Of a stretch of DNA of 39,944 nt, positions 14,561 to 15,412 are shown piece after piece. The translations under genes were made by a program, and so were the position numbers. Source of the DNA: a virus; the UHGV virus genome UHGV-0147509, one strand, 5' to 3'. Under the pieces are notes generated by a model. It was given only the letters and a program-made list of their open reading frames with translations. It searched no databases and had not been told where the DNA came from. Each line of letters begins with the position of its first letter. The first letter of the stretch is position 1.

Positions 14561-14589
14561 CAAAAAATTGCCCTCACATTAGAGGGCAA
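14561..14589 (-). terminator. intrinsic terminator on the minus strand (tL-like) immediately upstream of the 322-aa gene
   Basis: Perfect inverted repeat TTGCCCTC-ACATTA-GAGGGCAA at 14568-14589 with a U-run on the minus-strand side (plus-strand AAAAAA at 14562-14567). Confidence 0.55.
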
Positions 14590-14736
14590 AGAAGATTTCC
14601 AATAATCAGAACAAGTCGGCTCCTGTTTAGTTACGAGCGACATTGCTCCGTGTATTCACTCGTTGGAATGAATACACAGTGCAGTGTTTATTAGTATGCC
14701 TGTCTTTTAACCACATCAGGCTCGGTGGTTCTCGTG

Positions 14737-14781
14737 TACCCCTACAGCGAGAAAAATAGTAAAATCCTCTTACCCCTACAG
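14737..14781 (+). repeat. two direct 11-bp repeats TACCCCTACAG in the promoter region of the convergent gene
   Basis: Identical copies at 14737-14747 and 14771-14781 flanking a TAGTAAAAT -10-like element; candidate regulator binding sites. Confidence 0.5.
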
Positions 14782-14797
14782 TAAGAGAGTGATTTAT

Positions 14798-15292
14798 ATG
14801 TCTGATGAAAAAGGAATAATAAGTAGGATTACAGATGCAGTTTCTGGTGCCGGAGGTGCTCTGATGAGTGCTGTTGGCGCAGTAAAGGAAATCCAGAAAA
14901 TGCAAATAGACTACTCAGTAAAAGAAAAAACATACGAACTTGTCGATAAGCTCATGGATGCCCAACAGCAGCAAATGTCACTTAATGAGCTTTTGATGAT
15001 TTCTAAGGACAAGATCATTGAGCTTGAAGAAAAGATAAATCGAGCCTCTAAGTGGGAAGAGGAAAAGAAAAACTATGAGATGTATACACCTACTGTTGCT
15101 ACGGTGGTTTATCGTCTCAAAAAATCGGCAAATACCGGTCAGCCAATGCACTATCTTTGCGCTCAATGCTATGAATCTTCTGTGAAATCCATACTTCAAT
15201 ACGAAGGATTTGCACCACCTTCTAACCATAGGATGAGATGCCATAGGTGTAACGCCTCCTATCTGTTCCCTAAATCTGCATTTTCTAAATAA
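14798..15292 (+). CDS. hypothetical coiled-coil protein with C-terminal CxxC...CxxC zinc-ribbon-like motif
   Basis: ATG at 14798 with AAGAGAG SD (track start is an upstream GTG at 14789); AT-rich; transcribed opposite to the surrounding leftward early operon and bracketed by terminators. Confidence 0.6.
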
Positions 15293-15380
15293 GTGATATA
15301 GATTTACCTTTAATTTTCTGGCGTCCTCTGCATGTTATGCCGCGTTCGCCAGGCTTGCGGTAGTAAATTCGGTTATTTAT

Positions 15381-15412
15381 GTAATAAAAAACCCGCCTTA
15401 GCGGGTTATTAT
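15381..15412. terminator. bidirectional intrinsic terminator between convergent genes
   Basis: AACCCGC-CTTA-GCGGGTT hairpin flanked by A-run upstream and T-rich run downstream; sits between the stops of the plus gene (15292) and the minus gene (15409). Confidence 0.7.

Follow-up and report, generated by a model that had tools for sequence, protein, structure and literature searches.

What is a single rightward gene doing in the middle of a leftward early operon? The question is raised by a locus of the virus genome UHGV-0147509, of which a stretch of 39,944 nt was analysed (hereafter the window). Here, one plus-strand gene stands between two minus-strand genes and, as the first-pass annotation of this DNA had observed, points against the direction of the early operon:

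14798-15292, plus strand: rip1 open reading frame (ATG at 14798, stop codon at 15290-15292; 164 aa)
13581-14549, minus strand: neighbouring gene on the left side, 322 aa, starting at 14549
15409-15852, minus strand: neighbouring gene on the right side, 147 aa

The coordinates of the central gene stand as first annotated; its length does not, being 164 rather than 165 aa. We take ATG 14798 to be the real start because the N-terminal M1-S-D-E-K is conserved across the family (homologues open with M-S-D/E-E/N-K), and in the same homologue alignment GTG 14789 showed no conservation as an alternative start. The description of the gene as AT-rich holds only mildly, with 39.8% GC as compared to 46.7% for the window and 42-46% for the adjoining genes. 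The CxxC...CxxC motif noticed from the sequence is borne out in full, with C121, C124, C148 and C151 invariant in 21 close and 43 distant homologues. An AlphaFold (AF2) model built from the 21 homologues (pLDDT 70) places helices at residues 7-16, 19-34 and 39-90, followed by beta strands; the predicted layout thus begins with N-terminal helices, continues in a long central helix and ends in a beta domain that carries the four invariant cysteines. The N-terminal 25 residues are modelled at pLDDT <50 and the hydrophobic moment of residues 1-24 is moderate (0.35-0.42); in the homologue alignment, the N-terminal sequence is strongly conserved.

By sequence, this gene is already known: it is the published rip1. 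A phmmer search against the PDB retrieved chain 9oox_L, 'ring interacting pore 1 (Rip1)', at E = 1.4e-105, the alignment of residues 3-164 containing one difference (Y96 in the window protein, where 9oox has H), and a profile of the 21 homologues matched 9oox at 7e-83. The entry, released on 2026-02-04, bears the title 'Cryo-EM structure of the Escherichia phage HK446 Rip1 in complex with the Enterobacteria phage T6 small terminase'. Structure prediction, which the first-pass annotation had proposed as a check, led to the same fold: Foldseek aligned the AF2 model to 9oox_M with a probability of 1.00 (TM 0.85, target-normalised; rmsd 2.7 A over 126 columns). At the DNA level, the cassette 14555-15362 is 99% identical to phage HK446, with the upstream block and the start of N covered by the match, and the counterpart gene there is gp37. 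The early suggestion that a prophage carries a defence or exclusion gene at the site of sieB therefore fits, since the product is, bar one aligned residue, the characterised anti-phage protein Rip1 of HK446.

How widespread is the gene, and why did it go unrecognised? At E <= 0.001, the Rip1 family comprises 2955 clusters (50% identity), mostly of ~140-220 aa among the 150 listed. Among complete E. coli genomes, 96 of 5,426 contain the rip1 coding sequence itself, as do phages HK446, ev099 and vB_EcoP-720R6, and a locus search based on the alignment of close homologues yielded five related loci. The database copies are all annotated as 'hypothetical protein' (HK446 gp37 included), the matching PHROGs family (phrog_1244) is of 'unknown function', and PADLOC 2023, whose library is older than Rip1, returned one weak match (PDC-M53B, E = 0.019). 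The main gain is one of annotation, in that copies labelled 'hypothetical protein' receive a name; as a gene, rip1 is not new.

In the account of Patel et al. (2026, Nature 651:1060) summarised in PMC13434031, Rip1 is encoded by prophages and has no toxicity on its own. [quoted passage not shown] It further reports that 12 Rip1 subunits surround an 11-mer small terminase ring, the C-terminal half touching the ring and the N-terminal part forming an amphipathic helix, and that the complex is a pore, as judged by dye leakage from liposomes, holes in cells, and premature lysis of the infected cell. The small terminase subunit is also named as what Rip1 senses in PMC13601566, and a further paper likewise describes a small-terminase trigger and an 11:12 complex. 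Transferred to the present locus, an incoming phage would make ring-shaped assembly proteins, Rip1 would assemble around them, and its N-terminal amphipathic helices would form a membrane pore, so that the infected cell would be permeabilised before progeny are complete. The founding member, from a Pseudomonas aeruginosa prophage, belongs to the same named system and is, according to PMC13434031, likewise a prophage-encoded single sensor/effector protein; there, however, the gene lies between the small and large terminase genes and escape maps to the portal, whereas here it occupies the early-left sieB slot. Terminase components also serve as the infection signal for TerI and Avs1-3, as presented in PMC13601566. 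In contrast to the 164-aa Rip1, which is itself the effector pore, Avs proteins are described as large STAND NTPases that sense the large terminase (PMC13601566, PMC13434031).

Would the resident phage trip its own alarm? The window encodes an Sf6 gp1 small terminase (28079-28501; E ~1e-91 to 4dyc and 3hef), and this protein matched no chain of 9oox, in which the partner of Rip1 is the T6 small terminase. Near-identical Rip1 proteins also occur in phages with different morphogenesis modules: HK446 belongs to the Hendrixvirinae, whereas in the window the small terminase is of Sf6 type and a neighbouring gene resembles Sf6 gene 33. From these comparisons, we infer that the resident phage's own Sf6-type rings would not activate Rip1.

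The position of the gene is best read against phage lambda, in which sieB (34482-35036, plus strand) and the minus-strand N terminate at exactly the same point. Homology between window and lambda falls into three pieces, and the coding sequence between them is unrelated to sieB:

14562-14692: lambda tL2a and boundary sequence bsq4 (lambda 33925-34055), 97.7% identity
14697-14782: the 86 bp directly upstream of lambda sieB (lambda 34396-34481), 87% identity
15285-15362: 3' end of lambda N, 88% identity

With homology to lambda on both sides and not within, rip1 appears as an alternative cargo in the sieB slot. The gene had initially been assigned to the interval where lambda and P22 carry sieB, and this is precisely where it lies, with the sieB upstream block on one side and the 3' end of N on the other. 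Homologues with 45-63% identity take the same slot in Pantoea, Serratia, Proteus and metagenomic contigs, where most of them converge on an N-peptide gene, and a lone plus-strand gene amid minus-strand early genes recurs in the window, in HK446, and in E. coli, Pantoea, Serratia and Proteus prophages. When viral contigs were scanned for the promoter block, the matches listed with an open reading frame behind them (n = 123) comprised 97 sieB and 25 rip1 loci, and one locus carrying an unrelated 83-aa open reading frame. The likeness to lambda and P22 sieB extends to slot, orientation (convergent with N) and upstream block, and both are prophage genes directed against other phages; the proteins, however, are unrelated.

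The first-pass annotation had further described the gene as isolated by two terminators. The features that bear on this claim are:

14568-14589, minus strand: leftward intrinsic terminator, homologue of tL2a (8-pair hairpin followed by TTTTTT; -14.5 kcal/mol, z = -2.9)
14562-14692, no strand assigned: lambdoid boundary sequence (bsq4 of the Sf6 annotation), including tL2a
15287-15362, minus strand: 76-bp remnant of the 3' end of a lambda-type N, overlapping the rip1 stop codon (88% to lambda N)
15390-15407, no strand assigned: bidirectional hairpin terminator, scoring on both strands (-13.6 kcal/mol, z = -3.9 on the minus strand)

On the left, the tL2a homologue adjoins the upstream end of the 322-aa gene; its equivalent in the Sf6 record is labelled 'terminator, homology to phage lambda; tL2A'. 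The boundary block around it is common to hundreds of lambdoid phages, whatever stands to its right. In many E. coli prophages, a ral gene lies between this block and the sieB-type promoter; it is missing here. On the right, the terminator at 15390-15407 ends the 147-aa gene and would likewise halt rip1 transcription. In HK446, as in the majority of E. coli prophages, rip1 instead overlaps an intact convergent N by 8 bp, without a terminator, whereas in the window N is truncated and followed by the terminator and the unrelated 147-aa gene. The 99% homology to HK446 stops at 15362, which sets the recombination junction at 15362/15363. The same arrangement is found in E. coli strains 317 and YP3, and the N remnant of strain 317 is annotated as a pseudogene without the N-terminus. 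The right-hand terminator and the 147-aa gene are thus from a different immunity-region module. Both hairpins are present, as claimed, but the pair is no intrinsic property of the cassette; with the right terminator outside it, isolation by two terminators is a local accident of mosaicism. An Rfam search (E <= 1) gave only weak terminator-like matches in this region (STnc370 and isrK, at 15366-15427).

Could the gene be something other than a working rip1? Position, orientation and promoter block are those of lambda and P22 sieB, as would suit a functional analogue of SieB/Esc acting by classical sieB-type abortive infection. Yet the protein lacks similarity to lambda SieB (BLASTP E = 9.4, in keeping with the initial remark that it does not look like SieB), the sieB and rip1 groups stayed unlinked in an all-against-all BLAST of the cargo proteins behind the common promoter, and no internal in-frame product comparable to the Esc product of SieB is indicated; together with the essential identity to Rip1, this makes a SieB analogue extremely improbable. 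Nor does a zinc-ribbon regulatory or housekeeping protein of the phage (for example, a transcription or recombination accessory factor) stand any real chance. It could draw on a zinc-ribbon Pfam match at E = 0.087 and on the uniform 'hypothetical protein' labels in the databases, but the Pfam matches (PDE12-like_N, Zn_ribbon_4 and DUF6943) are all sub-threshold and far under the gathering scores, the gene is dispensable in that related phages have sieB or nothing in the slot, its orientation opposes the early operon, and the protein matches the characterised Rip1. Finally, the reduction of the adjoining N to a 76-bp remnant shows that the region has been rearranged, and the window copy might be a silent passenger, left intact but not usefully expressed once the N module was replaced at the 15362/15363 junction. 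We deem this very unlikely, given that open reading frame, leader and upstream block have all survived undamaged, at 99% identity to HK446, and that the arrangement recurs in strains 317 and YP3.

If rip1 is a functional gene, what drives its expression? The block upstream of the start codon had been proposed to hold a promoter region of its own, and it indeed aligns gap-free to the annotated sieB promoter and RNA start of P22. Its elements are:

14697-14782, no strand assigned: sieB-type promoter block, homologous to lambda and P22; its minus strand corresponds to the body of a putative sas-type antisense RNA
14735-14765, plus strand: predicted rip1 promoter (TGTACC, 19 nt, TAAAAT), aligning to the P22 sieB promoter
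14737-14747, plus strand: copy 1 of a direct repeat, TACCCCTACAG, overlapping the -35 element and, on the minus-strand RNA, lying in the loop of the predicted helix H1
14771-14781, plus strand: copy 2 of the direct repeat, TACCCCTACAG, spanning the predicted mRNA start A14772

The predicted -35 element is TGTACC (14735-14740) and the predicted -10 element is TAAAAT (14760-14765). The P22 record places the sieB promoter at locus 3691-3721 (TGTACC...TAAACT, with a 19-nt spacer) and the 'sieB RNA start site' at locus 3728, which is the A of the second ACCCCTACAG and aligns to A14772 of the window; promoter and repeats align with both P22 and lambda without internal gaps. A transcript starting at A14772 would have a 26-nt leader with an AAGAGAG Shine-Dalgarno-like stretch. 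Among homologues, the -10 hexamer varies (TAAAAT, TAAACT, TAGTAT, TATAAT) and always reads as a -10. A generic sigma-70 scan left the promoter at 14735-14765 uncalled, owing to its weak -35 element and long 19-nt spacer; the scan's sole plus-strand call, 14793-14820, spans the start codon. By analogy with P22, rip1 would be transcribed in the lysogen from the sieB-type promoter, starting at A14772.

The same block has a second face. A 2026 small-RNA sequencing study lists the P22 sas RNA as a 127-nt minus-strand sequence (PMC13397905, Table 2), and this is the exact reverse complement of P22 locus 3637-3763. It spans from 5 nt inside sieB leftward, through both repeats and the -10 element, to the end of the conserved block. 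Homology of the minus strand of window positions 14697-14782 to P22 sas covers the middle and the 3' portion of that RNA, and takes in the two repeat copies as well as the 3' helices. Unlike these, the 5' end of sas, complementary to the ribosome-binding site and start codon of sieB, is not conserved, since the cargo differs. What had been taken for a repeat-bearing promoter region is thus, by homology to the body of sas, an overlapping promoter and sas module. Over 14690-14800, Rfam returned no match (E <= 1). In lytic P22 growth, sas (Ranade and Poteete 1993) is known to switch translation from SieB to the inhibitor Esc, a role that has no obvious equivalent for Rip1.

From where would such an RNA originate in a rip1 cassette? 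No convincing leftward promoter was found in rip1 codons 1-25, either by scan or, across seven homologues, by eye. A weak -10-like element recurring at one position within these codons was set aside, as it has no -35 element. In the absence of a clear leftward promoter, the antisense RNA might come only from pL read-through, or might not be made at all. During lytic growth, leftward RNA would oppose rip1, be it as pL read-through or as a sas-type RNA with 14697-14782 as its body, and N-antiterminated transcription from pL would cross rip1 in antisense in any case. On this basis, we infer that leftward antisense transcription silences rip1 when the phage grows lytically. Lysogenic expression and lytic silencing had both been predicted from the layout of the locus; the finding that the conserved block is the body of P22 sas strengthens the two predictions. 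Antisense control may possibly act as a second safeguard against self-triggering.

Does the minus strand fold as an RNA would? Three helices were put to a covariation-type test:

14731-14734 with 14748-14751, minus strand: helix H1 (CUCG/CGAG), enclosing repeat copy 1
14709-14714 with 14725-14730, minus strand: helix A (AACCAC/GTGGTT), in the 3' domain of the sas-type RNA
14698-14702 with 14717-14721, minus strand: helix S1 (GCCTG/CAGGC), crossing helix A in a pseudoknot topology

The test covered 52 distinct, closely related versions aligned on the minus strand. Across these versions, 95.3% of cells were paired and six pairs had changed on both sides. None of 500 shuffles reached the observed values, and pairing fell to 23-45% when the partners were slid against each other. 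U-G wobbles in three loci (L062, L099 and L123) fit pairing on the minus strand only. Single-sequence folds gave z-scores of only -1.6 to -1.8. As the sequences are closely related, we regard support for the minus-strand helices as moderate, not strong. A candidate hairpin around copy 2 (CTCTTAC/GTAAGAG) was rejected, as its register is absent in P22, lambda and Serratia.

This leaves the two exact 11-bp repeats, which the first-pass annotation had singled out and which do flank the -10-like TAAAAT, 34 bp apart. With up to one mismatch, ACCCCTACAG occurs four times in the window as compared to 0.9 expected, and the only exact copies are these two. Conservation across genera indicates that the repeats are not a chance occurrence. 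Three versions were seen:

most loci: ACCCCTACA(G) twice, spacing 34 bp
Providencia (L135): CCGCAACGTAA twice, spacing 34 bp
metagenomic locus L143: TTCCACAGACAA twice, spacing 33 bp

In all three, the copies flank the -10-like element. Both copies have changed together in the two diverged lineages while the cargo is still rip1, and in L143 helix H1 changes compensatorily as well (TCTCG/CGAGA to TTTCC/GGAAA). The rule of matching copies is not universal, since L136, L139 and L140 are without a clear repeat pair. Taken together, the concerted repeats and the compensatory changes in the minus-strand helices suggest a role at the RNA level.

What might that role be? One possibility, which we put forward tentatively and hold to be somewhat doubtful, is that the repeats are an RNA device that shuts off Rip1. 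Copy 2 would form the 5' end of the rip1 mRNA, and copy 1, displayed in the loop of the antisense hairpin, would provide a second site complementary to it; the mRNA 5' end would then have two complementary partners on the antisense RNA, its own antisense site and the copy 1 displayed in the loop, where pairing could nucleate. Stability of the antisense RNA would come from the pseudoknot-like 3' domain. In this manner, the cassette could allow its phage to turn off the translation of Rip1 while growing lytically. For such pairing the two copies must match, which would explain why they changed jointly in two lineages. Conceivably, though in our view with no better than a minor share of the probability, the repeats are instead operators for a phage or host DNA-binding regulator of the sieB-type promoter and have no role at the RNA level. 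Their placement, with copy 1 over the -35 element and copy 2 at +1, is that of classic repressor sites, and the preserved spacing of 33-34 bp would suit a protein that binds two sites. Against operators speaks the joint change of both copies into unrelated sequences (CCGCAACGTAA in Providencia, TTCCACAGACAA in L143) with spacing and rip1 cargo kept, a pattern that would require the unlinked gene of a trans-acting protein to vary in step; moreover, immunity and N modules of many kinds are found next to the ACCCCTACAG version, P22 is known to transcribe the block as an antisense RNA, and the helix enclosing copy 1 has undergone compensatory changes. Matching copies favour a self-contained mechanism and are less well explained by an unlinked DNA-binding protein, and it is improbable that the direct repeats serve as simple promoter operators.

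The locus thus very probably represents a prophage defence gene, rip1, that sits in the sieB slot and would be expressed from a sieB-type promoter, be opposed by leftward RNA, and not be triggered by the phage that carries it. What is added to the known protein is regulatory: a cassette common to sieB and rip1, repeats that change in concert, and a pseudoknot-like 3' domain. Rip1 and SieB emerge as alternative cargoes of one conserved promoter/antisense-RNA cassette in the lambdoid early-left operon. Should sas-like control hold, it would explain how a phage can carry a pore-forming suicide protein without harm to its own lytic cycle. If, in addition, the repeats do act as an RNA device, the cassette would constitute a general self-immunity switch for whatever defence gene occupies the sieB slot. 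And if antisense RNA controls Rip1 as sas controls SieB, the sieB slot would be a plug-in site for defence genes.

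The organisation around the sieB-type promoter block varies both in its boundary and in its cargo. In the window, the block is joined almost directly to bsq4, the conserved lambdoid boundary sequence (14692/14697). In lambda, by contrast, the ral gene and orf28 separate the two and, unlike in the window, ral also lies between them in many E. coli prophages carrying the same cassette with rip1, the gene for the ring-interacting pore protein Rip1. Behind the promoter block of one viral contig (L014:1092-1134 and downstream) we found a third cargo, an 83-aa ORF (MDLEMDIPDMVFPISL...) unrelated to SieB or Rip1. 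For rip1, the first 231 nt only, encoding the N-terminal helical half, match four vB_EcoM phage records (ON470579, ON470582, ON470588 and ON470593) at 68% DNA identity. This match may reflect a divergent Rip1 or a relative that arose by domain shuffling.

On the minus strand, the block would form the body of a putative sas-type antisense RNA, whose 3′ part (14698-14730) is predicted, across loci L005-L143, to fold into two crossing helices of pseudoknot topology with an A-rich linker between them. Compensatory changes in these helices occur in Serratia, Providencia and metagenomic variants, and conservation ends abruptly immediately after CAGGCA. No Rfam family was found for this 3′ part.

Three minus-strand genes lie near this region:
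13581-14549, minus strand, 322-aa protein, highly charged and rich in Glu, Ala, Lys and Arg; homologue of Sf6 gene 33 (phrog_1376)
15409-15852, minus strand, 147-aa ORF with a leader at 15853-16010
16114-16986, minus strand, LexA-family repressor, mechanical ORF of 290 aa

The 147-aa ORF stands in the position of N, with the repressor/pL region on one side and the first leftward terminator on the other. It has no Pfam match, its sole match in PHROGs being phrog_13686 ('unknown function'), and an arginine-rich stretch, SSRRRQASRARQ, directly follows an internal Met. Since a truncated lambda-type N remnant adjoins it, the arrangement suggests that N has been replaced by this ORF, which may or may not encode an antiterminator. 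For the repressor, the true start is probably an internal Met, because the annotation of E. coli strain 317 gives the equivalent gene a length of 708 bp, as compared to the 290-aa mechanical ORF; the upstream extension of the latter overlaps the divergent cro-like gene (16901-17131). Annotation of the Sf6 gene 33 homologue varies by record ('TolA', 'antitoxin protein' or 'hypothetical'); in the window, the GC content of the gene climbs as high as 52%, and its repeat region is strongly skewed.

Outside the early region, five ORFs were noted:
4673-6661, plus strand, 662-aa ORF
6796-7989, minus strand, 397-aa ORF
28079-28501, plus strand, small terminase, first in the late region
28498-29913, plus strand, 471-aa ORF
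29915-32113, plus strand, 732-aa ORF

The small terminase is essentially identical to Sf6 gp1, and the sizes and order of the two ORFs that follow suggest a putative large terminase and portal, respectively. With the 662-aa plus-strand ORF preceding the 397-aa minus-strand ORF, this layout looks like that of a phage genome and not like that of an integrated prophage.
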